From assembly GCA_023247445.1 (NCBI GenBank), contig JAHFGL010000004.1, forward strand, positions 72,968 to 136,967: a stretch of DNA of 64,000 bases, written 5' to 3'. Each line of letters begins with the position of its first letter. Positions within the stretch are counted from its first letter, which is position 1. The translations under genes were made by a program, and so were the position numbers. The notes under the pieces were generated by a model. The model was not told the DNA's origin. It did not search any database and was given only the letters and a program-made list of their open reading frames with translations. This DNA is from Candidatus Omnitrophota bacterium. Lineage in GTDB: Bacteria; Omnitrophota; Gorgyraeia; Zapsychrales; Zapsychraceae. Below are positions 41,979 through 64,000 of this stretch, in pieces.

Positions 41979-41980
41979 AT

Positions 41981-44160: not shown

Positions 44161-44163
44161 GCT

Positions 44164-47669: not shown

Positions 47670-47676
47670 ACAGATT

Positions 47677-48555: not shown

Positions 48556-49239
48556 GTGAAACCAAAAGTTGCAATCATCGATTTAAATATGGGAAATTTG
48601 TTCAGCATCAAGCAGGCCTGTGCGCATGTTGGGTTAGAAACTTTTATTACGTCGGATGCGCAAGAAATAAAAATGGCTGATGCTGTTATTTTGCCAGGGG
48701 TTGGCGCCTTTGGTAATGCGATGGAACATCTCAAAGAAAAAGATTTGATTAAGACGATTCATGAGGTGATTGCGCAAGGCAAACCTTTCTTTGGCATTTG
48801 TTTGGGAATGCAGATGCTTATGTCGGAAAGCGAAGAATTTGGTCGACACAAAGGTTTAGATATTATTCCAGGACGAGTTATTCGTTTTCCAAGTCGTGGG
48901 GCTAAAGAAAATGTTATCAAAGTTCCTCAGGTCGGCTGGAATCAGGTTTATCTGGCGGATCAATTTAAATTAAATCCTGAAAGAAGTTGTTGGAGTGATT
49001 TGGCCAATGGTGAGTATATGTATTTTGTGCATTCTTATTATGTTATTCCCCAGAATTCCAATGTCGTCGCGCTGGAAACAGTTTATGAAGATGTGAAGTA
49101 TTGTTCAGGATTGGTTAAGAACAATATTTTTGCGACACAATTTCATCCTGAAAAAAGCGCTGACAAGGGAATTAAGATTTATCAGAATTGGGCTAAGTTA
49201 GTTGAGAAGTCATTAATAAAAAGTATTCTGCTACGCTAA
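48556..49239 (+). CDS. HisH-like glutamine amidotransferase subunit (WbuY-like).
   Basis: VAIIDLNMGNLFSIKQAC..., a class I GATase with a Cys in GICLGMQ, and His/Glu near FHPEKS. Confidence 0.8.
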   Translation: MKPKVAIIDLNMGNLFSIKQACAHVGLETFITSDAQEIKMADAVILPGVGAFGNAMEHLKEKDLIKTIHEVIAQGKPFFGICLGMQMLMSESEEFGRHKGLDIIPGRVIRFPSRGAKENVIKVPQVGWNQVYLADQFKLNPERSCWSDLANGEYMYFVHSYYVIPQNSNVVALETVYEDVKYCSGLVKNNIFATQFHPEKSADKGIKIYQNWAKLVEKSLIKSILLR

Positions 49240-49318
49240 ATGCTTCCGCGTTAAGCTTCGCAGGAATTCCTACGAAGCTCAAACATGAAAATATTTGAGC
49301 GAAGTAGAAAGGAGTCGT

Positions 49319-50685: not shown

Positions 50686-52314
50686 ATGCAGAATAGGATC
50701 CAAGGTAAAAGAATTGATGGTGTTTTAGGTAATAATGAGCTGCGTGATTATTTGGCTAACAAAGAAGAGACCGCCGCCGTTGAGGTTGTCAAATCCAGTC
50801 AAGATCTCTATCAATACCAAAAACCTTTTACACGTCCAATCCAAACATTGCTCATTGCGCCGCCAATTACGATCCCGCGCAATATGCAAAAAAGGTGCAT
50901 TCCTCCTTTAGGGTTAAGTTATATTGCCGCCTCAATTGAAAAAGCTGGTTTAAATGTCAAGATGCTCGATGCCATGATTGAAGGTTATCATCATGATGAG
51001 TTTAATGGCAATCTTATGACCTATGGCCTTTCGATGCAGCAGTTAGAGGATCGACTTCGTCAAATGCCGGTCGCCCCCGATGTTATTGGTACATCGGTAT
51101 TATTCTCAACGGATTTACATAATCTTTATAACGTTGCTAAGGTGATCAAGAGAGTCTTTCCAGAAAGCATCATGATTGTTGGCGGACTTCATCCAACAAT
51201 TTATCCCAAAGAAATTTTTGAAATTGATGAGCAGATAAATGGAAAGAATCGCACCGTTGATTTTGTCATCCGCGGCGAAGGAGAAGTACGTTTTGTTGAG
51301 TTTATTAAGCTGATGCAAAAAGGCTTGATTGATCGAAAAGGCGATGGATTAGTTGGTTATCTTAATGGCGAGTTTTTCTGTAACCATCAAAAGGGAACAA
51401 TTGAAAATATCGATTCCTTACCTTTTCCCGCCTATCATTTACTTCCCATGGAAAAATATTTAAGTATCAATATCCCATTTTCACCGGTTCCGCAAGGAAA
51501 TCGCGTGGCCCAAATTCTAACTTCGCGGGGTTGCCCGATTGGATGCAGTTTTTGTGCGAGTACGAATATGTATAAAAGATATCGTCATCGTTCGGTTGAA
51601 AATATTATGCAGGAGATATTTCAGCTTAAAGAAAGATACGATATTGATGAAATTCAATTTGCCGACGATAATTTAACATTAAATCGTGAACATTCGATTC
51701 AGTTTTTTAATGAACTAAAAAAAGCTGGCCTAAAATGGTGTACGCCCAACGGGACCATGATCAATACGTTGACGCCGGATCTTTTGGATTTAATGGCTCA
51801 ATCGGGTTTGTATCAGATTACGTTGTCTGTTGATAGCGCTAATGCCAAGACCCTTAAAAACCTTCATCATAAACCGGTTAATTTAAACAGTATTCCGGGG
51901 CTTATTGCCAAAGCGAAAGAATATGGCATCTTTACGCATGGAACGCTTGTTGTCGGAATGCCAGGGGAAACAATTGATGATGTGAAAGAAGGTTTTGATT
52001 ATGTCAAAAGCAACTTGGGTTTTACCAGTATTTCAACATTTATCGCGGCCGCTATTCCCGGATCAGAGCTTTATCATCAATCATTAGACAAAGGATTAAT
52101 TACTCGAGAAGAGGCGCGGATGATTGATACGACAAAAAATAAAATTCATTTGTCGGAGATGAATCCAGAAGTTTTAGAAACCATGGTCATGGATTTTCAG
52201 GCAGAGTTTACGGAGATTGCTAAGAACCGTGATCCCGAAGAATATTATCGTAAATATAAAAAATTAATTGAATCAGGTCGATTAAAGGGCGCCTATGGGG
52301 GACGTTTAACATGA
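50686..52314 (+). CDS. Cobalamin-binding (class B) radical SAM enzyme, a putative radical methyltransferase.
   Basis: An N-terminal B12-binding Rossmann segment (CIPPLGLSYIAASIEKAGLNVKMLD). The radical SAM CxxxCxxC lies in ILTSRGCPIGCSFCAS. 542 aa. Confidence 0.75.
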   Translation: MQNRIQGKRIDGVLGNNELRDYLANKEETAAVEVVKSSQDLYQYQKPFTRPIQTLLIAPPITIPRNMQKRCIPPLGLSYIAASIEKAGLNVKMLDAMIEGYHHDEFNGNLMTYGLSMQQLEDRLRQMPVAPDVIGTSVLFSTDLHNLYNVAKVIKRVFPESIMIVGGLHPTIYPKEIFEIDEQINGKNRTVDFVIRGEGEVRFVEFIKLMQKGLIDRKGDGLVGYLNGEFFCNHQKGTIENIDSLPFPAYHLLPMEKYLSINIPFSPVPQGNRVAQILTSRGCPIGCSFCASTNMYKRYRHRSVENIMQEIFQLKERYDIDEIQFADDNLTLNREHSIQFFNELKKAGLKWCTPNGTMINTLTPDLLDLMAQSGLYQITLSVDSANAKTLKNLHHKPVNLNSIPGLIAKAKEYGIFTHGTLVVGMPGETIDDVKEGFDYVKSNLGFTSISTFIAAAIPGSELYHQSLDKGLITREEARMIDTTKNKIHLSEMNPEVLETMVMDFQAEFTEIAKNRDPEEYYRKYKKLIESGRLKGAYGGRLT

Positions 52315-53063
52315 GTTTGTCCATGGTCAGAGCGCAAAATTTAAAATTCGCTGAGAGTTTTGATGTTGTAAAAAAACATTTTATGCGGGAAGGATTTTAT
52401 TCGACCGCCATAACGGAATGCGTATATGATCTTATTACATATTATTTTGCGCCAATTATCCTTAAATTAAAATTGAGCTTAAATGACATTTCTCTTATAA
52501 GAATTGCTTTAGTTATTTCTTGTGTGTTATTTACAATTTTTGGTGGGCTTGAGGGTTGGCGGATAGGTTTTCTACTTTTCTTTATCGCTAATATTCTAGA
52601 TTATGTCGATGGGCGGGTTGCTCGGGCAACCAGTAAAGGGACTTATTTTGGTCACTTTATTGATGGATTAATTGATATCGCTTCTGAAACCATGATTCGC
52701 TTTGCGTTAGCTTGGGGAATCTATCATCAGTTTGGGTTTACCCCGTTATTTTGGTTAGGAATTCTAAGTATGATGTTAACATCATTTCATATTTTTCTTT
52801 ATGACCGTTATTCAGCTTTTGCCCGATGGATAAGCTCGACAAATAATATGAATATTTCCCCTGTTCTGCAGAGAAAAGGCCTTTTAAAACCTCAAAATGT
52901 AATGTGGGATTTAGAATGGTTATCTTTGTTTTTTTCTTTGGCTTTTTTTGTGCAAGCAATTTGGATCTATTTTATTTTAAGTCTGATTCACCAGGTGTTT
53001 TTTATTACCTATATTATAAACGGAGCCCATGACAACATGAGAGTTCCTAATGAGGCCCATTAA
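52311..53063 (+). CDS. CDP-alcohol phosphatidyltransferase family membrane protein.
   Basis: The diagnostic D-G-x2-A-R-x8-G-x3-D-x3-D motif is present as DYVDGRVARATSKGTYFGHFIDGLIDIASE, within a protein of about 6 TM helices. Confidence 0.7.
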   Translation: MSLSMVRAQNLKFAESFDVVKKHFMREGFYSTAITECVYDLITYYFAPIILKLKLSLNDISLIRIALVISCVLFTIFGGLEGWRIGFLLFFIANILDYVDGRVARATSKGTYFGHFIDGLIDIASETMIRFALAWGIYHQFGFTPLFWLGILSMMLTSFHIFLYDRYSAFARWISSTNNMNISPVLQRKGLLKPQNVMWDLEWLSLFFSLAFFVQAIWIYFILSLIHQVFFITYIINGAHDNMRVPNEAH

Positions 53064-53080
53064 AATTGTGAGAAGAAAAT

Positions 53081-54757
53081 ATGATAAAGACAAAAAAACT
53101 TCGTAAATTATTTAACGACAAAGAAGTCATTTATGTGATGGGTGCGCATAATGGATTAAGCGCCAAACTAGTCGAGCAAAGTGGTTATGATGCTGTTTGG
53201 GCCAGCGGGCTTGAGATATCAGCTTCTTACGCGGTTCCCGATGCCAATATTTTAACGATGACTCAGTACTTAGAAAAGTCATCAGAGATGAATGAAGCGG
53301 GATCTCTACCTATTGTCAGCGACTGTGATACGGGTTATGGAAATTCGAATAATGTTATTTATCTTGTTAAGAAATATGAATCCGCCGGAATTGCTGCTAT
53401 TTGTTTGGAAGATAAACTTTTTCCTAAGGTGAATAGTTTTATTGGTGGTCGGCAAGAGTTGGCCCCCATTGCAGAATTTGTCGGAAAGATCATGGCGGCA
53501 AAAAATACTCAACGTGATGAAAATTTTATGGTGATTGCTCGTGTTGAAGCTTTGATTGCGGGTTGGGGGGAACGCGAAGCTTTATTAAGAGCGGAAAAGT
53601 ATGTTGAAGCAGGCGCCGATGCGATTTTAATTCATTCGAAGAGAACGGATCCTGATGAGATTATCAGCTTTGCCAAGAAATGGGACAAACGTGCTCCTTT
53701 GGTTGTGGTTCCGACCACTTATCCCTCTTTAATGCAGAATTTTTCTGACACAGATTTATCTGGTTTAGGAATCAAAATGGTCATTTTTGCCAATCAAGGC
53801 ATTCGTGCTTCAATTAAAGCGATGGGAAAAATTATGTCAGATATGCGACAGTCTCGAGGGGCTGTTTCCGTTGAGAAAGAAGTCGCTACATTAAAAGAGG
53901 TTTTTGAATTGCAGGGAATGATCCAAATGAAAGATAGTGAAAAGAAATTCCTTAAATCTGAAAATAGTGATTTCAACGTGATTATTCTTGCGGCCGGAGC
54001 CCCTCAGCATGGAGATGATCTTGAGCCTTTGCTACGTGATCGTCCTGTCGCGCTTCTCGATATTAATGGCCAGTCGCTTATTAAACGTAACCTTGAAACA
54101 TTATCGCGATTTAGCGTCAATGAAGTTTGTGTTGTGACTGGTTATTGTAGTGAACAGTTTAATTTACCGGACGCAACTTTAATCCACAACCCAGATTACG
54201 AAGGTAAGAATGTTTTACATTCTATCGTCGCGGCTGAAGAGAAATTAAAAGGCAAGACACTACTGGCTTATGCGGATATTCTTTTTGATCGGGGCATTAT
54301 TGAAAAGCTTTTAAAGTGCGATGAAGACATTGTTTTGGTTGGTGATGCTACATTTAAGAAAGTGAATATGAATAACCGCCGAAAAGACTTTCTTGTGACC
54401 GATGAGATGCCCAAGATCACGTATCGCTCGATTGATCTTAATAAATTAAAATGTATCCGAAAAATTGGTGGTGATACTCTTCCTGAAGAAGCGCATTATG
54501 AATTTGTGGGATTGGCGCTTCTTAGTGATCGTGGGTCAAAGATATTTAAAGAAATGTATCACACCATGGCTAAAGAAAATAAGATGGAGATTCTTAACGA
54601 CAAAATTACAATTAACGATGTCTTTCAGGAAATTATTAATCGAAATATCCCCATATCAATGTTAGAGGTTAATTCGGGCTGGATTGAGATTCAGACATTT
54701 GAAAATTATAAAACAGCTTGTTATTTGCTTTCTCCACAGACAGAAGGAACCAGATGA
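53081..54757 (+). CDS. pepM: Phosphoenolpyruvate mutase (PepM) fused to a C-terminal nucleotidyltransferase domain.
   Basis: The N-terminal ~290 aa have the PepM-specific EDKLFPKVNS motif of the ICL/PEPM superfamily (distinct from isocitrate lyase), plus SDCDTGYG. The C-terminal ~250 aa (VIILAAGAPQHGDDLEPLL...) is an NTP-transferase fold. Confidence 0.8.
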   Translation: MIKTKKLRKLFNDKEVIYVMGAHNGLSAKLVEQSGYDAVWASGLEISASYAVPDANILTMTQYLEKSSEMNEAGSLPIVSDCDTGYGNSNNVIYLVKKYESAGIAAICLEDKLFPKVNSFIGGRQELAPIAEFVGKIMAAKNTQRDENFMVIARVEALIAGWGEREALLRAEKYVEAGADAILIHSKRTDPDEIISFAKKWDKRAPLVVVPTTYPSLMQNFSDTDLSGLGIKMVIFANQGIRASIKAMGKIMSDMRQSRGAVSVEKEVATLKEVFELQGMIQMKDSEKKFLKSENSDFNVIILAAGAPQHGDDLEPLLRDRPVALLDINGQSLIKRNLETLSRFSVNEVCVVTGYCSEQFNLPDATLIHNPDYEGKNVLHSIVAAEEKLKGKTLLAYADILFDRGIIEKLLKCDEDIVLVGDATFKKVNMNNRRKDFLVTDEMPKITYRSIDLNKLKCIRKIGGDTLPEEAHYEFVGLALLSDRGSKIFKEMYHTMAKENKMEILNDKITINDVFQEIINRNIPISMLEVNSGWIEIQTFENYKTACYLLSPQTEGTR

Positions 54758-55524
54758 TAAAAACTGTGATAACGGCTGTTATTCTAGCAGCGGGATTAGG
54801 GAGACGATTAAAAGAACTTGGGCACAATGCCCCGAAAGGATTTTTGAAGTTTGGGGAAAAGCCAATTATTGAAGAGTCCATTGAAAAGCTTCTTGAGTCA
54901 GGAATAACCCAGATTATTTTGGTCACAGGATTTTTAAGCGAGTTTTATGAAGATTTTGCTTCTAAGTATCCAGAAGTAAAAATTGTAAAAAATGAGCGAT
55001 ATGCGACTTCGGGAAGTATGTATTCCTTATTTTGTGCCCGCGCATTGATTAATAAAGATTTCTTGTTAGTTGAATCCGATCTTATTTACGAGCGATTAGC
55101 CTTAGAAACACTTTTGCAGTCTGTGAAAGAGAATTGTCTTTTGGTTTGTGGAGAAACAGAATTTGGTGATGAGGTTCATGTTGAGGTATTAAACGGCTGC
55201 GTCTCTAAGATTTCAAAAAAGAGAGAAGAGGTTAAGAACGTTTATGGAGAATTTATTGGGATTTCGAAAATTTCTTTTCCCATGTATCAAGTGATGCTAA
55301 GAGAATGCGAAAAATTATTTCAGAAGGATCTAAACATCGAATACGATACCGGATGTATTTCTGCTTTAGCCAATCAAGTTAAAGTTGGCGCCGAGAAAGT
55401 TGAAGATCTTCTCTGGTCAGAGATTGATAACAAAGAACAATGGCAACGGGTTCAAAAAATTATTTATCCCGCCATCCAAAGCAAAGATGGTCAGGCTCAG
55501 GTTGATTTAAGGAAAAAATGCTAA
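54754..55524 (+). CDS. LicC/PntC-like cytidylyltransferase (phosphonate / phospho-headgroup nucleotidyltransferase).
   Basis: VILAAGLGRRLKELGHNAPKGFLKFGEKPIIEESIE is the LicC-type CTP:phosphocholine/AEP cytidylyltransferase signature. ATGA overlap with pepM. Confidence 0.7.
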   Translation: MIKTVITAVILAAGLGRRLKELGHNAPKGFLKFGEKPIIEESIEKLLESGITQIILVTGFLSEFYEDFASKYPEVKIVKNERYATSGSMYSLFCARALINKDFLLVESDLIYERLALETLLQSVKENCLLVCGETEFGDEVHVEVLNGCVSKISKKREEVKNVYGEFIGISKISFPMYQVMLRECEKLFQKDLNIEYDTGCISALANQVKVGAEKVEDLLWSEIDNKEQWQRVQKIIYPAIQSKDGQAQVDLRKKC

Positions 55525-56681
55525 ACACAAAATTATTTGGTCAAGAATTAAAAACGTATGGATTTAACTTCTTTTCCGGCGTTCCATGTTCTTTTTTAAA
55601 AGACCTTATTAATTATGCGATTAATGATTTGCGTTATGTCGCGGCCGCTAACGAAGGCGATGCCGTTGCCATTGCGGCAGGCGCTTATCTTGGCGGCATT
55701 AAATCCGCGGTCCTCATGCAAAATTCTGGATTAACGAATGCGACCTCACCATTAACATCATTGGTTTATACTTTTAAGATTCCGATTTTGGGGTTTGTTA
55801 GTCTTCGGGGAGAAACAGGAATTACTGATGAACCGCAGCACGAACTTATGGGAACGATAACAACCAAGTTTTTAGATACAATGCAAATTCCATGGGCATT
55901 TCTTTCTGACCAAATCGAAGAAGCGCGAGAGCAATTAAAGCAGGCCAACGCTTTTATTGAAGAGAATAAGCCATTTTTCTTTGTTGTGCGCAAGGGAACC
56001 TTTGAGCAAGAATCTCTTAAAGCCCGGACGATCCCTTCTGTTAAAAATAATCGAAAGGTTTTAGAATCAAAATCTAGTCATCTTGTTAGCCGTAACGACG
56101 CTTTAACTGAGATTCATAAAATTAAGGATGACGACACTGTTTTTTTGGCAACGACGGGAGTAACGGGAAGAGAGCTTTATGAGATTGATGATGCGGAAAA
56201 TAATCTTTACATGGTTGGATCCATGGGATGTGTCAGTTCATTAGGATTAGGCCTGGCGCTGGCTACGCCGCAAAAAAAAGTTGTGGTCATTGATGGCGAT
56301 GGATCTTTACTCATGCGGATGGGAGCACTCGCGACTAACGCAGCGTATGGGCCAAAAAATTTATTGCATATTACTTTGGATAACGGGATTCATGATTCAA
56401 CGGGCGGACAAGACACCGCTTCTCTAAATCTGAGTTTTGTCGAAATTACGGCCGCCTGTGGTTATGATCAAGCCTTATATGCTCACGATCTTGATGAATT
56501 AAAAAAATATATCAATCAATGGAAAAGTAATCCGGCATTAACTTTTATTCATTTAAAGATTAAGAAAGGGACAAGAGAAGATTTGTCTCGTCCTAAAATT
56601 AAACCTTTTGAAGTTAAGAATCGGTTAATGAAATTTTTAATCAAGAAGAGTAACGTTTTGCATTCACAACATGCAAAATGA
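55518..56681 (+). CDS. ppd: Phosphonopyruvate decarboxylase (TPP-dependent).
   Basis: YGFNFFSGVPCSFLKDLINYA...VAAANEGDAVAIAAGAYLGG (N-terminal PYR domain) and GSMGCVSSLGLGLALA...IDGDGSLLM (TPP-binding GDG). It is directly downstream of pepM, as in all AEP pathways. Confidence 0.8.
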   Translation: MLNTKLFGQELKTYGFNFFSGVPCSFLKDLINYAINDLRYVAAANEGDAVAIAAGAYLGGIKSAVLMQNSGLTNATSPLTSLVYTFKIPILGFVSLRGETGITDEPQHELMGTITTKFLDTMQIPWAFLSDQIEEAREQLKQANAFIEENKPFFFVVRKGTFEQESLKARTIPSVKNNRKVLESKSSHLVSRNDALTEIHKIKDDDTVFLATTGVTGRELYEIDDAENNLYMVGSMGCVSSLGLGLALATPQKKVVVIDGDGSLLMRMGALATNAAYGPKNLLHITLDNGIHDSTGGQDTASLNLSFVEITAACGYDQALYAHDLDELKKYINQWKSNPALTFIHLKIKKGTREDLSRPKIKPFEVKNRLMKFLIKKSNVLHSQHAK

Positions 56682-58378
56682 AAGGAGATTTTATGGAGCA
56701 AGCTCCTGAAGTATCTTCAAAAATTCGCAATCCTGTTTTAGAAAAAAATATTCCCGAAGATAGTGGACTGCGTGAATATTTGGCTGGTAAGGAAGAGACG
56801 GGTTTTGTTAAAGCCTCTATCAGAACGACAAATCTTATCCGCACTCATGAAGGTAGCGATAACTGGCCACGAACACTTTTACTTATGCCTCCGATTACTT
56901 TGTCGGAAGGAACGGTTAAACGAGTTATTCCGCCGTTAGGCTTAGCTTATATTGGGGGATACTTAGAGTCACAAAATATTCCCTTTGATATTCTTGACTG
57001 CGTGGTTGAGGCCTTGCACGAAGAACGTTTGATTAGTGATAAAACATGGCAATATGGGATGTCGTATGATCAAATTCGGAAATATATCGAAAATTATAAA
57101 CCGGATATTTTGGGCCTTTCCATCATGTATTCGTCAGATCTACATGCCCTTTATGAGGTGGCTCAAATTGCCAAGGAAATTAATCCTAAGATAATAACGA
57201 TTGGGGGAGGGATTCATCTTTCAATTTACCCCAAAGAAGTTTTAAATGAAAGTTTGATTGATGGAAAGCCAACCCTGGATTATCTTATCCGTGGGGAAGG
57301 TGAAATCCGTCTCGCCGAGTTTATTAAAAATTATAAACAAGGACTGATAGATATTAATGCGGATGGTTTATGTGGTTGGAATAATGGCAAAATTTTTCTA
57401 AATCCTCAAGTTGAAACAATCAAAAATTTAGACGACATGCCTTTCCCCGCTTATCATCGATTGCCGATGGAAAAATATTTTGAGTGGAATGTTCCGTTTT
57501 CTCCATATCCTCGAGGGAAAAGAGTTATGCAACTTTATACCTCCCGCGGATGTCCGGTTGGCTGTACGTTTTGCGCCAGTACCAATTTCAATAAAGCTTA
57601 TCGTGGGCGTTCTCCAGAAAATATCATCAAGGAAATTAAATATTATCAGGAAGTCTACAATATTGATGAAATTCAATTTGCTGATGATAATTTAACTTTT
57701 GATCGAACGCGGTCCATGGAGTTCTTTGAACTCTTGAAAGATTGTAACCTCCCTTGGTGTACACCCAATGGAACGATGGTCAATACGTTGACAGAAGAAG
57801 TGCTGGAGAAAATGATTGCTTCAGGTCTTTATCAAGTCACCCTTTCTTTAGACAGTGGTAGTGTTAAGACCTTAAAGCAGTTTCATCGAAAGCCTGTAAA
57901 CCTACAAAAGGTCCCGGGGTTAATTGCTTATTTAAAACCTAGGGGTATTTTAAGTCATGGGACAATTGTTGTTGGGATGCCAGGAGAAACGATTGCGGAC
58001 ATTGAAGAAGGTTTTGATTATACCCGTAATTTAGCCTTAGACAGCGTCGCTGTTTTTATTGCTCAGGCCTTGCCAGGTTCTGAGCTTTATGAAAAGGCTA
58101 TCGCGAGTGGCACCATTGATCGTTTTAAGGCCCGCATCATTGATACGCAGCAAAATTTAATTAATCTTTCTGATGTTCCCCGGGAATATCTTGAAAGACG
58201 TGTGAGGGAATTTGTCGCTGAATTTAATCAGGTTGTTCGTAAAAACGATCCTGAAACTTTTGATAAGAAATACGCAAAGCATAAGGACCGTCTAAGACAA
58301 ATTTGTATTGGAATGGCTCATCATAATGTAGACGGCATACTTAAAGCCTATGAGTCATCGCCGGTAGAAACAGTTTAA
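56678..58378 (+). CDS. Cobalamin-binding (class B) radical SAM enzyme, a paralog of 50686..52314.
   Basis: VIPPLGLAYIGGYLESQNIPFDILD (B12 domain) and LYTSRGCPVGCTFCAS (CxxxCxxC). It is roughly 40-45% identical to the first copy along its length. Confidence 0.75.
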   Translation: MKGDFMEQAPEVSSKIRNPVLEKNIPEDSGLREYLAGKEETGFVKASIRTTNLIRTHEGSDNWPRTLLLMPPITLSEGTVKRVIPPLGLAYIGGYLESQNIPFDILDCVVEALHEERLISDKTWQYGMSYDQIRKYIENYKPDILGLSIMYSSDLHALYEVAQIAKEINPKIITIGGGIHLSIYPKEVLNESLIDGKPTLDYLIRGEGEIRLAEFIKNYKQGLIDINADGLCGWNNGKIFLNPQVETIKNLDDMPFPAYHRLPMEKYFEWNVPFSPYPRGKRVMQLYTSRGCPVGCTFCASTNFNKAYRGRSPENIIKEIKYYQEVYNIDEIQFADDNLTFDRTRSMEFFELLKDCNLPWCTPNGTMVNTLTEEVLEKMIASGLYQVTLSLDSGSVKTLKQFHRKPVNLQKVPGLIAYLKPRGILSHGTIVVGMPGETIADIEEGFDYTRNLALDSVAVFIAQALPGSELYEKAIASGTIDRFKARIIDTQQNLINLSDVPREYLERRVREFVAEFNQVVRKNDPETFDKKYAKHKDRLRQICIGMAHHNVDGILKAYESSPVETV

Positions 58379-58419
58379 AAAAGAAAATAAACAATATAGT
58401 TAAAAAGGGGGATTGAAGT

Positions 58420-59193
58420 ATGCTCAAAACAAATTATTTTACCAAGTCGGAGTTAGAAGCGTATGACAGGGATGGATTTATCCTTGTTAAAAACTTTTTT
58501 GATGCCGAGAAATTAAAACACGTTATTAAGATGGTGGATGAATTAATCGCGATGCCTGATAGGGTTGGATTCATTTGGAAGTTTTACGAAGATTTATCAT
58601 CAAATGGAGCAGGTAAAATTCTAGATCGTATTGAGAATTATACTTTTTTGGTTGATGGATGGAAGGGGCTTATCGCTGAAGGAGAATTGCGAGATCGTTC
58701 TTCGGAGCTTTTTGGTGAAGACGCAATTCTATTTAAGGATAAAATTAATTTTAAATATCCTGGTGGACGAGGATTTAAACCTCATCAAGATATGCATGGT
58801 GATTGGCAGATTTATGCCGAGAAATTTTTGACAGCATCAATTGCCTTAGATCGATGCACTATTGAAAATGGATGTCTTTATGTTTCCGCAGGTGATCATA
58901 AAAGAGGCCTTTTTGGAAAAATGTGGGAACCAATTCCTGATGAGTTATTAAAGAAAGAAAATATTAAGTGGATTCCATTAGAAATGGAAGCGGGAGATGT
59001 GGCCTTTTTTGATGCTTATACGCCTCATTATTCAGAGCGTAATTTAAGTAAAATCCGTCGAGCCATGATCCATTTAACTTATAATAATAAAACCGCTGGC
59101 GATTTTTATCAAAAGCATCTTGATGATAAAAGAGTGAACTATCCTCCGGATATCGAGCGAAAAGAAGGTAAAAGCTATGTTTATCGTGTCTAA
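58420..59193 (+). CDS. Phytanoyl-CoA dioxygenase (PhyH) family Fe(II)/2-oxoglutarate oxygenase.
   Basis: 257 aa. An HxD...H facial-triad arrangement (HQDMHGDW ... TPHYSERN) and a PhyH-like N-terminal region (DGFILVKNFF). Confidence 0.65.
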   Translation: MLKTNYFTKSELEAYDRDGFILVKNFFDAEKLKHVIKMVDELIAMPDRVGFIWKFYEDLSSNGAGKILDRIENYTFLVDGWKGLIAEGELRDRSSELFGEDAILFKDKINFKYPGGRGFKPHQDMHGDWQIYAEKFLTASIALDRCTIENGCLYVSAGDHKRGLFGKMWEPIPDELLKKENIKWIPLEMEAGDVAFFDAYTPHYSERNLSKIRRAMIHLTYNNKTAGDFYQKHLDDKRVNYPPDIERKEGKSYVYRV

Positions 59194-59208
59194 AACATAA
59201 CTTTTAAT

Positions 59209-60327
59209 ATGAAAGTAAGAAGAAACATACTTCTTAATCCCGGTCCAGCGACAACGAGTGATAGTGTTAAGAAGGCCCTCATCGTTGCGGATATTTGCCC
59301 GCGGGAAAAAGAATTCGTCAAGGTTGTTGATGGTGTCCGTCTAGATTTAGTCAAGATAGTTAAAGGCGATGGGCAGTATGCCTGTATTCTCTTGGCTGGA
59401 TCTGGAACGGCCGCCATGGATGCCTGCATTAATTCAGTTGCCCCACCCAAAAGTAGGATTGCGATTATCAACAATGGTGCCTATGGTAAGCGCTTAATTG
59501 ACATTGCAAAGTCTTATTCTCTAGATTATGTCGAAATACAATCAGCTTGGGAAAAGCCGCTCGATCCAAGTGTCGTTGAAGCAGTGCTTAAAAATGATCC
59601 ATCAATACGTTGTTTAGCGATGGTCCATCATGAGACAACAACCGGCCTGTTGAATCCATTAAAAGAGGTGGGAGCGATTGCGAAAAATTATAATTGCACA
59701 TTTATTGTCGATGCCATTTCTAGTTTTGCGGGTATTCCAATTGACATAAAAAAATGTCATGTCGATTTTTTGATATCGACCGCTAATAAGTGCATTCAGG
59801 GAATGCCTGGACTGGCTTTTATTATCTGCCACCAACCGGAATTAGCAAAGATTAGAAATTATCCTCGCCGTTCTTTTTATTTAAGTTTGTTTGATGAATA
59901 TAGTTATTATCAAAAAACAGGAGAGACGCGCTTTACCCCTCCGGTACAGGTGGTATATGCCCTGCGGCAGGCGATTAAGGAATATTCAAAGGAAGGCGCC
60001 ACGGGGCGTTATAAGCGTTATACGGCCAATTGGAAGGTCTTGCGCGATGGATTAGAGAGGATGGGATTTAAGTTTTTATTAAGGAAAGAAGATGAGTCAC
60101 ATATTTTAATGACCATGATGGAGCCGAATCATCCCAAATATAATTTTGATAAAATGCATGATCTTTTGTACAAGAAAGGTTTTACGATTTATCCCGGGAA
60201 GATTGGCCAGCTCAAAACATTTCGATTAGCGAATATGGGGGACATTAACCCAGCAGATATTAAACGTTTTTTACAAGAGTTAAAGAATGTATTAAAGAAA
60301 ATGGAAGTTTATTTAAAGAATGACTAA
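59209..60327 (+). CDS. 2-aminoethylphosphonate:pyruvate aminotransferase (class V aminotransferase; PhnW/AepZ-like).
   Basis: ILLNPGPATTSDSVKKAL...ACILLAGSGTAAMDA...STANKCIQGMPGLAFI places the PLP Lys in the xNKC motif. It belongs to the serine-pyruvate/AEP transaminase family and sits in the cluster with pepM and ppd. Confidence 0.75.
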   Translation: MKVRRNILLNPGPATTSDSVKKALIVADICPREKEFVKVVDGVRLDLVKIVKGDGQYACILLAGSGTAAMDACINSVAPPKSRIAIINNGAYGKRLIDIAKSYSLDYVEIQSAWEKPLDPSVVEAVLKNDPSIRCLAMVHHETTTGLLNPLKEVGAIAKNYNCTFIVDAISSFAGIPIDIKKCHVDFLISTANKCIQGMPGLAFIICHQPELAKIRNYPRRSFYLSLFDEYSYYQKTGETRFTPPVQVVYALRQAIKEYSKEGATGRYKRYTANWKVLRDGLERMGFKFLLRKEDESHILMTMMEPNHPKYNFDKMHDLLYKKGFTIYPGKIGQLKTFRLANMGDINPADIKRFLQELKNVLKKMEVYLKND

Positions 60328-62425
60328 GGATCAAAATAAAAATGAGTCTCCCTATGTGTGCTGGGTTGATCACGTAAGTTTTTTAGCTCTGGCCAGAATC
60401 CTTTTCTTAAGGCTACAGTATCCTTTCACAGCCATCCGTTACATCACGATCAGTCTCCAGGTTAAGAAAATCGTCGAGCGTTTCTTAAAATCACTCAAAT
60501 TTGAAAATGTGTATTTATTCGCGAATAATGTATCTCCTCACGAAGAGATGGCGATTACCAATAAGACATATGACGATACGGTTTCTTTCATCGATCAAGT
60601 CATCAAACCTTCAGAATCTGTTACGCCAATGCTTAGTTTTATTGACGAGCGTTACAACAAAGAAACAATTGATTTCTTTATGAAGCAAGAAATTGCCTTT
60701 GAGATCGATGTCCCTTTAAGGCTTTTTAACTGTATTATTTTTCAAAGTCAAAAGACCAGAGGAACAGCAGCATCTAAAAATATCGTTCTTATCAAAGATA
60801 ATTATTGGATAGATTATTTTAGGTCTTTTTATGCTTCACATGTTATCCAGGTGAGTGCGTATCCAAATATTAAAGAATTTATCAACAAAATTTATGTTTT
60901 CTTTAAATTAATCGTTGAGATTTTTTTAAATGGAATTCTTTTAGTGTTGGGTAAGAAAATAAATGATCAGGAGTTTAATGCCTCGGCTAAAATTGCTGTC
61001 TTACATGCGCAAGGAGTAAATCTAGAGAAAAAGACTGATTATTTCTGGTTTCCCGGTTCTGGCATAAATTCAGAGCAGATTCTTCTGTACTTTAAATATC
61101 CTACCAGACCACCCAGTCCAGAGGTTTTAGAGTTTGTGAATCGTAATAAAATTCCTTGGATTAACCTTTTGCCATGGAAAATTGGACATAAGAAATTATT
61201 GGGCGCAACGGCAGAATTCAATCGTTTCCCTGACAAGGGGTATCTTAAATTATTAATGCAGACACTCAAAACAAGCATCCGGATATTGTTTTTTTGTTTA
61301 ATCAATCGCCGACGAAAACTGTTTGGTTTTTGGAAATTTTTAACAGCGCTGTTGGCCACGATCAATTTTTTTGAAGCTTTTTTTAAGACTTACAATATCA
61401 AAGTCCATTTTGCCATGCATGATGGAGGGCGTGATATGGTGGCGGCCAATATTGCCATTGAGGTCGTTGGTGGAATTGATTTGTGCACGCACTGGTCTAG
61501 TTATGACACTACGATGTTAACGATGGGCAAAAGTCACGATGTTTGTTTTACCTGGGGCCCTTTTTTTACTAAGCATTTTTTTAGTAAGCCCTACTATTCA
61601 TTTAAAAATTTTGTTTATAGTGGCTATCTTTTTGATCGATCATTTGAATCATGTCAGAAAAAATCTAAGAAATATCGGCAACAACTTTTAAATGAAGGGG
61701 CAGAGTTTATTATTTGTCTATTTGACCAAAATAATCCCATCGAACGGCCTTTATGGAATCAGGAAGTTGAGAAATTATATCGTCGTCTCCTTGAGCTTGT
61801 CATTAAAGATAAAAAGTTGGGTCTTATTATCAAACCTAAAAAAATAAATCCAAAGGTCAAGCTATCGGCGATTGCTTCATTACTTCAAGAAGCTGAAACG
61901 ACCAAACGGTGTTTTGTTTTGATGGGAGATACTTTCCCTAATGAGGCCTCGCAAGCTTCTGATTTAGCTATCGGAGTATCGGTTGCCAGTACACCAACCG
62001 TCGAGGCTGCTTTGGCTGGGGCGAAGTGCATTACCTTTGATTTGGAAAGTCATTACGAGCATCCGTTTTATAAAGAGGGTCATCATAAGATTGTTTTTGA
62101 TGATTTGGATGAAATGTTTGAAACCATCGCCCGTTTTCGTTTAGAGCCATTATCTAGAAAAGGATTTGGCGATTATTCTTTTATTCTGCCTGAGATTGAT
62201 CCTTTCCGTGATCATAAAGCCTCAGAACGTATTGGGATTTATATCCGTGTTTTGCTGGAAGAGTTTGTTAAAGGGCATAATAAAGCAAGGGTTATCAACG
62301 TTGCCAACGAGTTTTATCGCCGTCAATATGGTCAAGATAAAGTGCTTGAGAGAAGCTTAAGCAGTGATGCAACGAGTGTTGAAAACATGGTGGATTCAAT
62401 TGTGTTGTCCAAAAGAGGAATTTAA
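60320..62425 (+). CDS. Large hypothetical protein of 701 aa, a candidate glycosyl/phospho(no)transferase.
   Basis: No firm motif. The C-terminal third (GDTFPNEASQASDLAIGVSVASTPTVEAALAGAKCITFD) looks like the last Rossmann unit of GT-B or TagF/KpsC-type transferases. It is translationally coupled to the AEP transaminase. Confidence 0.35.
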   Translation: MTKDQNKNESPYVCWVDHVSFLALARILFLRLQYPFTAIRYITISLQVKKIVERFLKSLKFENVYLFANNVSPHEEMAITNKTYDDTVSFIDQVIKPSESVTPMLSFIDERYNKETIDFFMKQEIAFEIDVPLRLFNCIIFQSQKTRGTAASKNIVLIKDNYWIDYFRSFYASHVIQVSAYPNIKEFINKIYVFFKLIVEIFLNGILLVLGKKINDQEFNASAKIAVLHAQGVNLEKKTDYFWFPGSGINSEQILLYFKYPTRPPSPEVLEFVNRNKIPWINLLPWKIGHKKLLGATAEFNRFPDKGYLKLLMQTLKTSIRILFFCLINRRRKLFGFWKFLTALLATINFFEAFFKTYNIKVHFAMHDGGRDMVAANIAIEVVGGIDLCTHWSSYDTTMLTMGKSHDVCFTWGPFFTKHFFSKPYYSFKNFVYSGYLFDRSFESCQKKSKKYRQQLLNEGAEFIICLFDQNNPIERPLWNQEVEKLYRRLLELVIKDKKLGLIIKPKKINPKVKLSAIASLLQEAETTKRCFVLMGDTFPNEASQASDLAIGVSVASTPTVEAALAGAKCITFDLESHYEHPFYKEGHHKIVFDDLDEMFETIARFRLEPLSRKGFGDYSFILPEIDPFRDHKASERIGIYIRVLLEEFVKGHNKARVINVANEFYRRQYGQDKVLERSLSSDATSVENMVDSIVLSKRGI

Positions 62426-62427
62426 TC

Positions 62428-63519
62428 GTGCAAGTCAAAGATGATGCGGCATTATTAAAGATGATGATGGAGGATTTGAAAAAAGCGCCGGAGCTTTATC
62501 GACCAACCAATTATTGGCAATGTTATGAAGAAAAATTTGCTGCTGAATTATTTAAGGTTGGGTTACATGATTTTCGTCGTCGAAATAATTCCGTTCTTTC
62601 GAGCTTCGCTGGAACAGATTTAGCCGAGAAATATGCAATTGATCTTTTGGCGAGCCGGTTATTTAACAATCGCTATACACGTCTGATTCCGTTTTGGCAT
62701 AAATTTCTTTCTTTTTGGAATTCTATACTTAACAAGCTTCTGCCCATTACAACACCATATAACATAACAACCGAGGATATTCAGCACTTGGCGTATTCGG
62801 TTGCCCGTTTAAAGGCTGAGAAGACAAACGCAAAACCTATTGATCAATTTGACACCTCATTAGCGGGTAATCCCGAAGATGTTTTTGTTATTAATGACAA
62901 GGCGTATACAACGCATCACTTTGATTACTATCTTAATTACGTCTACTGCACCAAATTTCTTGATTTTAGCAAAGTTAAATTGTTTGTAGAGTTAGGCAGC
63001 GGCGCTGGACGGCAGATTGAGGTTTTAAAGAAACTATATCCGCAGATGACATTTTGTCTTTATGACATTCCACCACAGATTTATGTTTGTGAACAATATT
63101 TGAGTTCGGTTTTTCCTGGGCAGGTGGTTTCTTATCGTCAGACACGAGGGATGAAAACAGTCCCATCGGGTGACGGAAAGATTTATATCTTTGGCAGCTG
63201 GGATTTTGAAATGGTTAAGAATATGCCGGTTGATCTATTCTGGAATTGTGCCAGCTTTCAAGAAATGGAACCGGAGATTGTGGCAAATTATCTTTCCTTC
63301 GTGAATAAAAGCGCGGCCAATGTGTTTTTATTAGAGGCCACCCGTGGCCAACATGTGGCCAAGCAAAAAGGTGAGCCAGGGGTTCTGCGTAAGACAACAT
63401 TTGATGATTACAAACAAGGGCTTAAGGATTTTAAGTTAGTTGATTTGTCGCCTGTTGTTTCAATCCCAAAGATGCATTCAGAAAACGATCACAGCATATC
63501 TTTCTGGAAAAAAAGTTAA
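62428..63519 (+). CDS. Hypothetical protein with a putative class I SAM-methyltransferase fold.
   Basis: A glycine-rich VELGSGAGRQIEVLKKLYPQMTFCLYDIPPQI resembles an AdoMet-binding motif I/II. Otherwise unknown. Confidence 0.35.
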   Translation: MQVKDDAALLKMMMEDLKKAPELYRPTNYWQCYEEKFAAELFKVGLHDFRRRNNSVLSSFAGTDLAEKYAIDLLASRLFNNRYTRLIPFWHKFLSFWNSILNKLLPITTPYNITTEDIQHLAYSVARLKAEKTNAKPIDQFDTSLAGNPEDVFVINDKAYTTHHFDYYLNYVYCTKFLDFSKVKLFVELGSGAGRQIEVLKKLYPQMTFCLYDIPPQIYVCEQYLSSVFPGQVVSYRQTRGMKTVPSGDGKIYIFGSWDFEMVKNMPVDLFWNCASFQEMEPEIVANYLSFVNKSAANVFLLEATRGQHVAKQKGEPGVLRKTTFDDYKQGLKDFKLVDLSPVVSIPKMHSENDHSISFWKKS

Positions 63520-63520
63520 T

Positions 63521-64000
63521 ATGAAGATTGTCCTTTTAGAATTTATTGATGAAGCCAAGGCCTTGATGGACAGCTATGGGAGAGATTTCTTTACCCAAAA
63601 AGATATCAAAGTCATTTGTCTTCATCCGAAGGTGCATGCGTATTTTAAAAAAGAAGGGATTGAGGCGCTTGATACAATTCCATTTTTAAGTAATGAAGCT
63701 CAGCATCGGATTATTCGTAAGAGTGAAGATCTTACGTTGAAATTAATGGCTGAACTAAATTTGGTCGATGGATTTAATATCCGCCAAGGATATCGAGAGG
63801 TTTGCATCCATCACCTGCGTTTATATCTGAATCATTTTCTTTGGATATTAGAAGTTCTAAACGGCGTTCGCGAAAAATATAAGATTGAACAAGTGTATGC
63901 GTGTGTGCCAAGTAACCGTCAATCGATGTATTTACGAAAAGGATATATTCAGAAAACAGAACGGTTTTTAGGGTTACTCGCCAAAGATTTTTGTGACAAG
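63521..64000 (+). CDS. Hypothetical protein, 3'-partial and not in the ORF track.
   Basis: ATG at 63521, 1 nt after the previous stop. The frame is open for 160 codons to the window end (MKIVLLEFIDEAKALMDSYGRDFF...). Confidence 0.45.
   Translation, partial: MKIVLLEFIDEAKALMDSYGRDFFTQKDIKVICLHPKVHAYFKKEGIEALDTIPFLSNEAQHRIIRKSEDLTLKLMAELNLVDGFNIRQGYREVCIHHLRLYLNHFLWILEVLNGVREKYKIEQVYACVPSNRQSMYLRKGYIQKTERFLGLLAKDFCDK

Follow-up and report, generated by a model that had tools for sequence, protein, structure and literature searches.

Among the described systems closest to the locus reported here is Sden_1161-1168 of Shewanella denitrificans OS217, the type locus of the NCBIfam families NF038361 and NF038362. 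The two share a phosphoenolpyruvate (PEP) mutase (PepM) fused to an NTP_transf_3 domain, a phosphonopyruvate decarboxylase (Ppd), a class-V 2-aminoethylphosphonate (AEP) transaminase, an unfused NTP_transf_3 protein and a same-family B12 radical SAM enzyme, and a phosphonoacetaldehyde reductase is absent from both. The Shewanella locus, however, has a single radical SAM gene and no PhyH oxygenase, CDP-alcohol transferase or nonulosonic acid (NulO) genes, and instead encodes a Pyr_redox_2 protein of 742 aa, an amino-acid kinase and a protein resembling thymidylate kinase. A likeness of gene logic is found with the fosfomycin pathway of Streptomyces, in which the PepM-cytidylyltransferase fusion Fom1 produces CMP-bound hydroxyethylphosphonate (HEP-CMP) and the class B (cobalamin) radical SAM enzyme Fom3 methylates this two-carbon phosphonate, requiring its CMP moiety (PMC9088020). 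The fused domain is an N-terminal PF01467 in Fom1 as opposed to a C-terminal PF12804 in the present locus; phosphonoacetaldehyde is reduced to HEP for fosfomycin, whereas a transaminase would give AEP here; and the CMP is later hydrolysed by FomD to release the free antibiotic, whereas the present locus encodes a transferase.

A Ppm-PntC fusion, Ppd, AEP transaminase, a 2OG/Fe(II) oxygenase, a second PntC and a CDP-alcohol-type phospholipid gene were brought together in the 'Burkholderiales_CDP-OH' group (Li and Horsman, 2022; PMC8942020), and the core of the present locus, minus its radical SAMs, equals this group. The published group differs in lacking a B12 radical SAM and in having two phospholipid genes, and no NulO embedding was described for it. 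In the Pnt pathway (Rice et al., 2019; PMC6697681), AEP is converted by PntC to CMP-AEP and passed to a surface glycoconjugate, as we propose for the present locus; the same work noted that some clusters have a separate nucleotidyltransferase besides the fused one. The Pnt pathway uses LicD-type transfer to cell-wall glycans, whereas the locus described below has a CDP-alcohol phosphotransferase instead, and adds two radical SAMs and an oxygenase between activation and transfer.

The locus lies in a window of 64,000 nucleotides, the whole stretch of Candidatus Omnitrophota DNA that was analysed. An ORF check of the window found ten co-directional ORFs at 50686-63519 on the + strand, exactly where the original prediction had placed them, and each of its family calls was correct. 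Neighbouring genes are separated by 1-41 nt or overlap by 4-8 nt (4 nt for both g1/g2 and g5/g6), an operon-like packing, and an AT-rich gap of 164 nt lies upstream of the first gene. The features are:

37359..50521, + strand: legionaminic-acid-type NulO gene set with acetamidino-forming genes, directly upstream of the cassette
50686..52314, + strand: g1, B12-binding radical SAM protein of the 'short' clade of the Sden_1168 family, 542 aa (PF02310 and PF04055)
52311..53063, + strand: g2, CDP-alcohol phosphotransferase-family membrane protein (PF01066, 40.4 bits)
53081..54757, + strand: g3, PepM with a C-terminal NTP_transf_3 fusion (PF13714, 181.6 bits; PF12804, 39.4 bits)
54754..55524, + strand: g4, PntC-type AEP cytidylyltransferase, 256 aa (PF12804, PF00483)
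55518..56681, + strand: g5, Ppd (TIGR03297, 424.4 bits against a cut-off of 312.5)
56678..58378, + strand: g6, B12-binding radical SAM protein of the Sden_1168 clade proper, 566 aa (PF02310 and PF04055)
58420..59193, + strand: g7, PhyH-family Fe(II)/2-oxoglutarate oxygenase (PF05721, 93.1 bits)
59209..60327, + strand: g8, AEP:pyruvate aminotransferase (AEPT; TIGR03301, 445.8 bits against a cut-off of 360.8)
60320..62425, + strand: g9, GT-B-fold protein by predicted structure, 701 aa
62428..63519, + strand: g10, NanM-type putative sugar O-methyltransferase, 363 aa (TIGR04371, 228.6 bits against a cut-off of 44)
63521..64000, + strand: g11, 5' part of a 656-aa protein leaving the window, and a conserved partner of g9

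Although it had been described as compact, the cluster adjoins the NulO set on one side and continues on the other, where a new ORF begins at 63521 and the locus extends for at least 10 kb past the end of the window; the full length of g11 and the genes beyond were read from another contig with the same genes. The phosphonate genes g1-g8 (50686-60327; 9.6 kb) are thus a phosphonyl-tailoring cassette inside a legionaminic-acid-type locus and not a self-contained cluster.

The route to AEP through PepM, Ppd and AEPT is borne out by motif and by curated-model scores. The PepM signature EDKxxxxxNS is present in g3 as EDKLFPKVNS, with a score just under the cut-off of TIGR02320 (318.1 bits against 319.55), and g8 scored 382.8 bits with NF010006 (cut-off, 296). 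For g5, sulfopyruvate decarboxylase was considered and rejected, its alpha and beta models both falling under their cut-offs. A PepM without EDKxxxxxNS and a Ppd that was really a sulfopyruvate decarboxylase had been named beforehand as findings that would overturn the prediction; with the motif in place and g5 scoring as phosphonopyruvate decarboxylase, it withstood both tests. Activation with CMP likewise held, since g4 is closely homologous to the AEP cytidylyltransferase Tde1415/PntC; the crystallised enzyme (6PD1) is its best PDB match (E 5.5e-52, 180 bits, residues 7-243), and it scored 70.6 bits with LicC. Translation of g4 probably starts at the ATG at 54754, in an ATGA overlap with the g3 stop codon, giving 256 aa and not 268. 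The NTP domain fused in g3 is more distant kin of LicC and PntC (35 and 24 bits, respectively).

The predicted tailoring enzymes and CDP-alcohol-type transferase were also confirmed by domain calls. The two radical SAM proteins are 51% identical to each other, each has CxxxCxxC, and both exceed the NF038361 cut-off of 575 bits (g1, 597.5; g6, 764.9); g6 is also 51% identical to Sden_1168 itself. The sole published activity for Sden_1168 is an in vitro methyl transfer to a phosphinate, and reviews call its role unknown (PMC9204698). A physiological substrate is known for no member of the family; SD1168 was placed among the Csp3 methyltransferases in a 2026 review (PMC12931638).

Neighbourhoods of this radical SAM family (NF038361/Sden_1168) were surveyed in 59 non-redundant loci, each of at least 8 kb. 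PepM or Ppd was present in 34 of these, AEPT in 24, a PntC-like gene in 26 and a CDP-OH or LicD transferase in 27. Neither PepM nor Ppd was found in the DNA available for the other 25, some of which have full 10-kb flanks (B. stabilis L004, Sorangium L007, and L069, L094 and L118), and the family is therefore not confined to phosphonate operons. The gene immediately downstream was LicD in 18 cases and CDP-OH in three for the g1 clade, and CDP-OH in six and PntC in six for the g6 clade; LicD identity was confirmed by Pfam in L057 and L069, and one member (P0103, in L038) is fused to a cytidylyltransferase and adjoins LicD. Members of the g6 clade adjoin PepM, Ppd and AEPT in Streptomyces, Shewanella and others. 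Orthologues of g1 (66-79%) occur in L020, L023, L024 and L054, and paralogue pairs of the g1/g6 type accompany PepM/Ppd in four other contigs (L036, L045, L046 and L120). In L024, a syntenic relative, the second B12 radical SAM is of another lineage, so the proposed pair of methylations is not constant. Taken by analogy, the neighbourhoods support a Fom1/Fom3-like logic in which CMP-AEP would be C-methylated and then transferred. The original prediction regarded this combination without a reductase as not described; the S. denitrificans type cluster of NF038361 already has this gene set, so the combination is not new, as the Streptomyces pepM-ppd-aept-rSAM operons and the paired paralogues also attest.

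The oxygenase g7 has an HQD...H triad, and comes nearest, among curated families, to methylphosphonate hydroxylase NF052437 (E 1.4e-40), whose cut-off of 500 is far above the 139 bits obtained. Hydroxylation of the phosphonate alpha-carbon is common for PhnY*-type enzymes (PMC8942020). No PhyH gene was found in the closest relatives, L119 and L120, or in L024; g7 is an accessory gene, and we propose that it encodes a phosphonate C1 hydroxylase. The motif of CDP-alcohol phosphotransferases, D-x2-DG-x2-AR-x8-G-x3-D-x3-D, is complete in g2 (DYVDGRVAR-x8-G-x3-D-x3-D), and the gene order of radical SAM followed by CDP-OH is kept in L024, L036, L054, L120 and L006. We propose g2 as the CMP-phosphonate:acceptor transferase.

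The NulO setting, the most informative hint to the acceptor, had been overlooked. The upstream set encodes LegB-like (460 bits), LegC-family (408 bits), NeuB (432 bits) and NeuC (444 bits) proteins together with NeuD/PglD, a CBS-nucleotidyltransferase, a CMP-NulO synthetase and WbuZ/HisH/WbuX (357 bits). The junction from a NulO gene into radical SAM, CDP-OH and PepM is kept in L024 and L120, and in L037 NeuB and CMP-NulO synthetase adjoin PepM-NTP, Ppd, PntC, radical SAM, AEPT and CDP-OH, although NulO adjacency is rare (only about six of the 59 loci, plus L120). Downstream, the two proteins initially listed as unknown belong to the flanking NulO glycan machinery and not to phosphonate synthesis. 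No match to g9 was found in Pfam or NCBIfam; the Foldseek neighbours of its AF2 model (pLDDT 83) are GT-B enzymes, namely UDP-GlcNAc 2-epimerases, HepE, TarL, polysialyltransferase and NeuC (E 2e-6 to 1e-4, though with a TM of only about 0.3), and a 44% identical homologue lies in an Omnitrophica NulO locus, L035, without phosphonate genes. In both L035 and L119 a g11 homologue comes after the g9-like gene, and the one in L035 gives a weak Epimerase_2/DUF6716 (GT-B) signal; g10 is missing between the two genes in both loci and is a putative accessory glycan gene. In L035, matching flanks (WbuX amidotransferase upstream; g9-like, g11-like and CTP_transf_3 genes downstream) hold a sulfation module in place of the phosphonate genes.

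From the gene identities, motifs and conserved neighbourhoods observed, we infer the substrate, where and how many times it is methylated, the sequence of steps and the acceptor as follows. PEP would be converted to AEP by the N-terminal part of g3, g5 and g8, and AEP joined to CMP by g4 and/or the PepM-fused nucleotidyltransferase domain. The CMP-bound aminoethyl chain would then be C-methylated by g6 and g1, each enzyme modifying its own position or the two working in successive rounds, in parallel to Fom3 acting on the CMP-hydroxyethylphosphonate made by the Fom1 fusion, and g7 would hydroxylate the carbon adjoining phosphorus. Finally, g2 would move the finished phosphonate from CMP onto a hydroxyl group, releasing CMP. 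As the cassette sits within a legionaminic-acid-type locus and relatives share this junction, the most likely acceptor is the NulO-containing surface glycan, or the lipid carrier or anchor of that glycan. We hold this full sequence of events with moderate confidence; the predicted methylated and/or hydroxylated head group, destined for a lipid or glycan, stands as the best reading, shorn of its claim to be an undescribed combination.

For most CDP-alcohol phosphotransferases that have been characterised, the donor or the acceptor is a lipid, which makes a phosphonolipid a serious alternative, if a rather unlikely one. Like the ethanolamine phosphotransferases that use CDP-ethanolamine, g2 would transfer CMP-bound (modified) AEP onto diacylglycerol or a different membrane lipid, with the NulO genes forming a separate envelope pathway or the lipid serving as anchor for a polymer. 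The top curated matches of g2 are phosphatidylinositol-phosphate and archaetidylinositol-phosphate synthases, both far under their cut-offs, and its best solved matches are AF2299 (the closest, weak at E 8e-4) and PIPS; moreover, phosphonolipids were predicted for the 'Burkholderiales_CDP-OH' group, which the core matches (PMC8942020). However, a second phospholipid gene is not present, IPCT/DIPPS, whose two halves g4 and g2 resemble, uses a soluble alcohol as acceptor, related loci have LicD, which decorates glycans and not lipids, in the transferase slot, and the NulO junction is conserved at the operon level in three lineages (the window, L024 and L120), with a similar link in L037.

It is improbable that the radical SAMs instead act on the sugar, methylating an N-acyl or acetamidino group or a NulO carbon and leaving the phosphonate as plain or hydroxylated AEP. 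That g1 comes right after the WbuX amidotransferase in the window and L024, that NulO loci lacking phosphonate genes can contain other B12 radical SAMs (seen in L035 and beyond the downstream end of the window), and that PepM is not in view around some family members in glycan loci (L022 and L023) would fit such a role. Yet both clades adjoin PepM, Ppd, AEPT, PntC, LicD or CDP-OH far more often than NulO genes, the Streptomyces operons have none of the latter, the 4-nt overlaps tie g1 to g2 and g6 to Ppd, and the L035 enzyme is only 26% identical to g1.

P-methylation to a C-P-C phosphinate, such as a methylphosphinate analogue of AEP, requires an H-phosphinate substrate and is very unlikely: domain searches found nothing in the cassette able to make one and no phosphinothricin-type genes, and the carboxyphosphonoenolpyruvate mutase model matches PepM only (105.7 bits against a cut-off of 420). 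The name 'P-methyltransferase' carried by NF038361 and the in vitro P-methyl transfer by Sden_1168, reported in work cited in the reference list of PMC9204698, are set against the Csp3 placement of SD1168 (PMC12931638). A diffusible, antibiotic-like phosphonate or an AEP catabolic cluster is equally hard to credit, for although Streptomyces members of the family occur in apparent secondary-metabolite settings and PhnW-type transaminases and PhnY*-type oxygenases are known from AEP degradation too, PepM with Ppd defines biosynthesis, the cassette has no PhnX, PhnA, PhnZ or C-P lyase and no exporter, ligase or resistance gene, and membrane transferase and glycan genes flank it.

The core gene combination is a widespread known type. 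In this organism, the genes form an operon by which AEP is made and then probably methylated and hydroxylated on CMP and handed to a cell-surface molecule.

Ten open reading frames run in one direction between 50686 and 63519, with neighbours either 1-41 nt apart or overlapping by 4-8 nt, and an AT-rich spacer of 164 nt lies 5' of the first gene, g1. Promoter and terminator scans returned counts no different from those of shuffled sequence. Recent horizontal insertion was rejected, as the GC content varies only between 0.36 and 0.40 over the window and a tRNA gene is absent. The cassette and its surroundings are organized as follows.

Gene blocks and genes in and around the phosphonate cassette (g1 to g10 share one direction)
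37359-50521, predicted legionaminic-acid-type nonulosonic acid (NulO) pathway, immediately upstream of the cassette
50686-60327, phosphonate cassette, g1 to g8
50686-52314, g1, B12 radical SAM (rSAM) enzyme
g2, predicted CDP-alcohol (CDP-OH) phosphotransferase
g3, PEP mutase (PepM) with a fused nucleotidyltransferase (NTP) domain
g4, PntC-type predicted cytidylyltransferase, true start probably the ATG at 54754
g5, phosphonopyruvate decarboxylase (Ppd)
56678-58378, g6, B12 rSAM enzyme, paralogue of g1
g7, PhyH-family oxygenase
g8, 2-aminoethylphosphonate (AEP):pyruvate aminotransferase (AEPT)
g9, 701 aa, GT-B-fold protein
g10, 363 aa, NanM-type putative sugar O-methyltransferase
63521 to beyond the window end, g11, 656 aa in full on a second contig with the same genes

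The families originally assigned to these genes were each borne out by Pfam and NCBIfam searches, and the two assignments on which the original prediction hinged, that g3 is not an enzyme of the isocitrate lyase type and that g5 is not a sulfopyruvate decarboxylase, both held on the g3 motif and the curated g5 scores. The C-terminal NTP_transf_3 domain of g3 follows a PEP mutase carrying EDKLFPKVNS, and hence the EDKxxxxxNS catalytic motif that sets PepM apart from other enzymes of the isocitrate lyase superfamily (PMC6697681). The top model for g3 is TIGR02320, whose cut-off of 319.55 it narrowly misses at 318.1 bits, with 298.1 against 374.4 on the phosphonopyruvate hydrolase model and 181.6 against 31.5 on PF13714; isocitrate lyase was rejected by the motif and the curated scores together. 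The g5 protein exceeds the Ppd cut-off (TIGR03297, 424.4 bits against 312.5) and falls under those for both models of sulfopyruvate decarboxylase (beta, 154.6 against 221.5; alpha, 93.6 against 147.95), which was rejected in turn. The g8 product lies above both cut-offs for PhnW/AepZ-type AEP:pyruvate aminotransferases (TIGR03301, 445.8 against 360.8; NF010006, 382.8 against 296). PntC enzymes are known to synthesize CMP-AEP for surface tailoring, and a nucleotidyltransferase is fused to approximately 60% of PepM enzymes (PMC6697681). As a close homolog of the crystallised PntC Tde1415 (6PD1; E 5.5e-52, 180 bits, residues 7-243), with a weaker match to LicC (1JYK, 70.6 bits), g4 is predicted to be an AEP cytidylyltransferase. 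The domain fused to g3 is far more distant from PntC and LicC than is g4, and the two nucleotidyltransferases thus probably have different jobs.

Two further cassette genes would act on, or with, the product of this core. The g7 protein (PF05721, 93.1 bits) has the Fe(II) facial triad HQD...H, and its closest curated family is that of the phosphonate alpha-hydroxylases (NF052437, E 1.4e-40), although its 139.4 bits fall far under the cut-off of 500; hydroxylation by PhnY*-like enzymes is typically at the alpha-carbon (PMC8942020). With the full D-x2-DG-x2-AR-x8-G-x3-D-x3-D signature, read as DYVDGRVAR ATSKGTYF G HFI D GLI D, and 40.4 bits on PF01066 against a cut-off of 22, g2 is a predicted CDP-alcohol phosphotransferase of the polytopic membrane protein class.

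The remaining cassette genes, g1 and g6, each encode a PF02310 B12-binding domain and a PF04055 radical SAM domain, with the cluster motif CxxxCxxC lying within TSRGCP[IV]GC[ST]FC, and are 51% identical to one another. Both exceed the 575-bit cut-off of NF038361 (g6, 764.9; g1, 597.5), a model titled 'Sden_1168 family B12-binding radical SAM P-methyltransferase'. Among the candidates scored, 1253 proteins matched this family with E values of 1e-30 or better, and its members are spread over Streptomyces, Kitasatospora, Sorangium, Shewanella, Burkholderia, SUP05, SAR116, Planctomycetota, Verrucomicrobiota, and Omnitrophota. No physiological substrate has been assigned to the family (PMC9204698); reviews describe its examination in vitro with the physiological substrate still unassigned, a 2026 review places Sden_1168 among the Csp3 methyltransferases (PMC12931638), and a search of open-access text found no characterised role. 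The family name would make g1 and g6 P-methyltransferases, but P-methylation requires an H-phosphinate substrate and a pathway to supply it. No gene between 50686 and 63519 matched phosphinate-forming enzymes, and PepM was the sole match there to the CPEP phosphonomutase model (105.7 bits against 420); lacking a source of H-phosphinate among these genes, P-methylation is unlikely.

C-methylation of a nucleotide-activated phosphonate has a precedent in the Fom system, where Fom1, a PepM fused to a cytidylyltransferase, makes CMP-HEP and the cobalamin radical SAM enzyme Fom3 methylates C2 only with the CMP moiety present (PMC9088020). The cassette resembles this system in combining a PepM-nucleotidyltransferase fusion (g3) with cobalamin rSAMs (g1, g6) in one operon. 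It differs in that the fused domain of Fom1 is an N-terminal PF01467 (PMC6697681) whereas that of g3 is a C-terminal PF12804, and in that the Fom route employs a phosphonoacetaldehyde reductase to form HEP and the CMP-releasing hydrolase FomD, roles taken here by a transaminase and a transferase; neither Fe-ADH nor FomD-like domains were found among g1-g10. The pairing of a radical SAM methylase with a transaminase route devoid of a reductase had been thought undescribed. This was incorrect, as the type locus of the family in S. denitrificans OS217 combines its rSAM with PepM-NTP_transf_3, Ppd, an NTP_transf_3 protein, and a class-V aminotransferase and has no reductase, and Streptomyces genomes have the order pepM-ppd-aept-rSAM. 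It nevertheless remains true that no product has been assigned to such a gene combination.

To place the family in context, 29 genome and 80 metagenome loci were gathered with the family alignment, and several more by exact look-up (a metagenome scan with the PepM fusion as sole query gave no matches). The window proteins and small HMMs for CDP-OH, PntC, LicD, and PhyH were mapped onto every ORF of the loci, and 59 non-redundant loci, none shorter than 8 kb, were counted. The counts come from flanks limited to ±10 kb, from short metagenome contigs, and from HMMs made for the purpose, that for LicD being built from two seeds only; Pfam was used to spot-check the calls for LicD and PhyH. PepM or Ppd was found in 34 of the 59 loci, AEPT in 24, a PntC-like gene in 26, a CDP-OH or LicD-like transferase in 27, PhyH in 5, NeuB or a CMP-NulO synthetase in 6, and two or more B12 radical SAMs in 8. 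The family falls into two cleanly separated clades, and the most telling pattern is the immediate downstream gene. In the g1 clade this is LicD (n=18) or CDP-OH (n=3), and in the g6 clade it is CDP-OH (n=6) or PntC (n=6). At one locus (L038, 10001-12906), a g1-clade rSAM is itself fused to an N-terminal CTP_transf_like domain (PF01467) and adjoins LicD; NRPS genes lie near this fusion, and PepM is absent from the 13 kb available. Pairs of g1-clade and g6-clade enzymes accompany PepM/Ppd in four other loci (L036, L045, L046, L120), and the doubled rSAM is thus recurrent and not unique to the window. Neither PepM nor Ppd was found in 25 of the 59 loci within the DNA available, some of it with full flanks, and hence the family also occurs outside phosphonate operons; what its members share looks to be a small head group activated with CMP or CDP. 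The Burkholderia stabilis locus (L004, 10001-12476) presents a different context, with a member 48% identical to g6 beside a gene of the Asp/Arg beta-hydroxylase family and with PepM, Ppd, nucleotidyltransferase, and transferase all absent within 10 kb. Given a cytidylyltransferase nearby or fused and a transferase of the LicD or CDP-alcohol type as the next gene downstream, the neighbourhood evidence points to CMP-AEP as a candidate substrate of the Sden_1168 family.

Originally described as compact, the cluster is not self-contained: the NulO pathway lies directly upstream, the next ORF begins just past 63519, and sugar genes continue downstream. The cassette lies between a WbuX amidotransferase and g9. 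The upstream block encodes a LegB-like dehydratase, a LegC-family aminotransferase, a NeuD/PglD acetyltransferase, a NeuB-type synthase, a NeuC-type epimerase, a CBS-nucleotidyltransferase, a CMP-NulO synthetase, and an acetamidino-forming WbuZ/HisH/WbuX set, a gene complement that, judged by family scores, is that of a legionaminic-acid-type pathway. NeuB (432.2 against 399.65), NeuC (444.5 against 235.9), NeuD/PglD (200.8 against 160.8), and WbuX (357.3 against 203.2) lie above their cut-offs, with LegB (460.4 against 475) and LegC (407.9 against 420) slightly under theirs. The first gene of the glycan block (35500-37362) encodes a fused ABC exporter of 620 aa (transmembrane and ATPase), possibly an exporter of the glycan or of a lipid-linked precursor, and a small HTH protein is encoded 5' of it (34935-35567). 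On the second contig, the locus extends at least 10 kb beyond the window end. There, g11 is followed by a CTP_transf_3 gene of the CMP-NulO synthetase type, a class I methyltransferase, and a third B12 radical SAM (500 aa), and then by a HAD hydrolase, an SDR, a second CTP_transf_3, a radical SAM/SPASM protein, and further sugar genes; a 2-hydroxyacid dehydrogenase and an epimerase are present as well. That CMP-NulO-synthetase-type genes number three overall suggests that more than one nonulosonic acid is made.

Two of the flanking proteins had been left as unknowns. For g10 this no longer applies, as its 228.6 bits on TIGR04371 exceed the cut-off of 44. With g9, no sequence family matched and only 12 homologs were found. 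Its confident AlphaFold model (pLDDT 83) matches enzymes of the GT-B glycosyltransferase fold, among them UDP-GlcNAc 2-epimerases, HepE, TarL, a polysialyltransferase, and NeuC; as TM scores are as low as about 0.3, nothing beyond the fold class can be relied on. The presence of TarL among these matches led to consideration of g9 as a TarL/TagF-like phosphonate transferase, which was rejected as its primary role given that g9 homologs occur in a NulO locus without phosphonate genes. Kinship of g9 and g11 with the LIC12162 family, found beside other phosphonate clusters, was also rejected for want of sequence similarity.

Related loci share the NulO setting and vary in the cassette. The closest relatives (L120/L119), with a g6 81% identical to that of the window, have NulO genes followed by g1-like rSAM, CDP-OH, PepM-NTP, PntC, Ppd, g6-like rSAM, AEPT, g9-like, and g11-like genes, with PhyH and NanM absent. 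The closest named syntenic relative, an uncultured Planctomycetales MAG (L024) whose core proteins are 60-75% identical, has NulO genes, then g1-like rSAM, CDP-OH, a class I SAM methyltransferase (12277-13032), PepM-NTP, a divergent 589-aa B12 radical SAM (14767-16536), PntC, Ppd, AEPT, and a g9-like gene; as it lacks both a g6 ortholog and PhyH, tailoring enzymes differ among close relatives. A single-rSAM version including CDP-OH lies beside NeuB and a CMP-NulO synthetase at L037. In an Omnitrophica MAG (L035; GCA_028716625.1, 1-14849), the flanks are those of the window (HisF/HisH/WbuX-like upstream; g9-like, g11-like, and CTP_transf_3 downstream), and a sulfotransferase, an ATP sulfurylase, and an APS kinase occupy the place of the phosphonate cassette; a B12 radical SAM of 462 aa and a second amidotransferase set are further genes of this locus. 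The pattern across these loci suggests a role for g9, g10, and g11 in the NulO glycan, with the phosphonate cassette as one of several exchangeable modules for anionic or zwitterionic decoration.

What is observed directly are the gene identities and their conserved adjacency; the substrate, regiochemistry, number of methyl groups, and order of steps in the following pathway are proposals. PEP would be converted by g3 to phosphonopyruvate, by g5 to phosphonoacetaldehyde, and by g8 to AEP, which g4 and/or the C-terminal domain of g3 would activate to CMP-AEP. The CMP-bound chain may then be C-methylated by g6 and g1 and hydroxylated at C1 by g7, prior to transfer of the product onto an alcohol by g2 with release of CMP. 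The identity of this alcohol is where the main rival lies. The 'Burkholderiales_CDP-OH' core comprises seven genes (Ppm-PntC, Ppd, AEPT, a 2OG oxygenase, a second PntC, and two phospholipid genes), and for this otherwise identical core Li and Horsman predict a phosphonolipid (PMC8942020); lipids are also the usual substrates of most CDP-alcohol phosphotransferases. Six of the seven genes are present here, g2 being the only phospholipid-type gene found, and the window cassette adds two radical SAMs. Given the conserved embedding in NulO loci and the exchangeable-module pattern, the glycan or its lipid carrier is favoured as acceptor. Taken together, the locus may specify a legionaminic-acid-type surface glycan bearing a previously unseen aminoalkylphosphonate, an AEP with one or two added C-methyl groups and a hydroxyl at C1, that is built on CMP and attached by a CDP-alcohol-phosphotransferase-family enzyme to glycan and not lipid, the cassette being an interchangeable 'anionic decoration' module in the slot of the related Omnitrophica sulfation module; as a whole, this combined reading is tentative and rather doubtful.

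Elsewhere in the window, the gene for a TonB-dependent receptor (12785-14800) has a cobalamin riboswitch (RF00174, 56.7 bits; + strand, 12567-12706) directly 5' of it. Downstream of the receptor come a Peripla_BP_2 binding protein (14819-15724), an ORF (15712-16515), and a FecCD permease (16512-17534). This stretch (12567-17534) looks like a B12 uptake operon, in keeping with a genome whose glycan-phosphonate locus has at least three genes for cobalamin radical SAM enzymes. Two methyl-cycle genes share the window with the methylase-rich locus, one for B12-dependent methionine synthase MetH with all five domains (5603-9289, + strand) and the other for methylenetetrahydrofolate reductase (27605-28477, - strand). 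Of two very large ORFs, one of 1517 aa (27-4580) has only a marginal match to glycosyltransferase group 1, slightly under the cut-off (residues 545-699), and one of 1430 aa (22480-26772) matches NHL and He_PIG repeats weakly.

The AEP core, the PepM-PntC fusion, the second PntC, the combination of 2OG oxygenase with CDP-OH, and a Sden_1168-type rSAM beside an AEP route are already known. As far as the open-access literature shows, the combination of two paralogues with PhyH and CDP-OH, found in no other locus among those compared, is new, as are its conserved embedding in a legionaminic-acid-type locus and the neighbourhood evidence for CMP-AEP as substrate of the rSAM family. A phosphonate-decorated sialic-acid-like glycan, for which the open-access literature yielded no report, is predicted from the position of the cassette inside the NulO locus and its conservation in relatives; methylated AEP natural products were likewise not found in open-access text. 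The proposal that CMP-AEP is the substrate is concrete and cheap to test for a large rSAM family. Should the chemistry be plain AEP transfer, the locus would be just another phosphonoglycan cluster. If the combined reading is true, however, C-methylation of CMP-AEP would be the first physiological reaction for the Sden_1168 family, and the biology of these poorly studied uncultured bacteria would gain a novel phosphonate head group together with a novel glycan modification.
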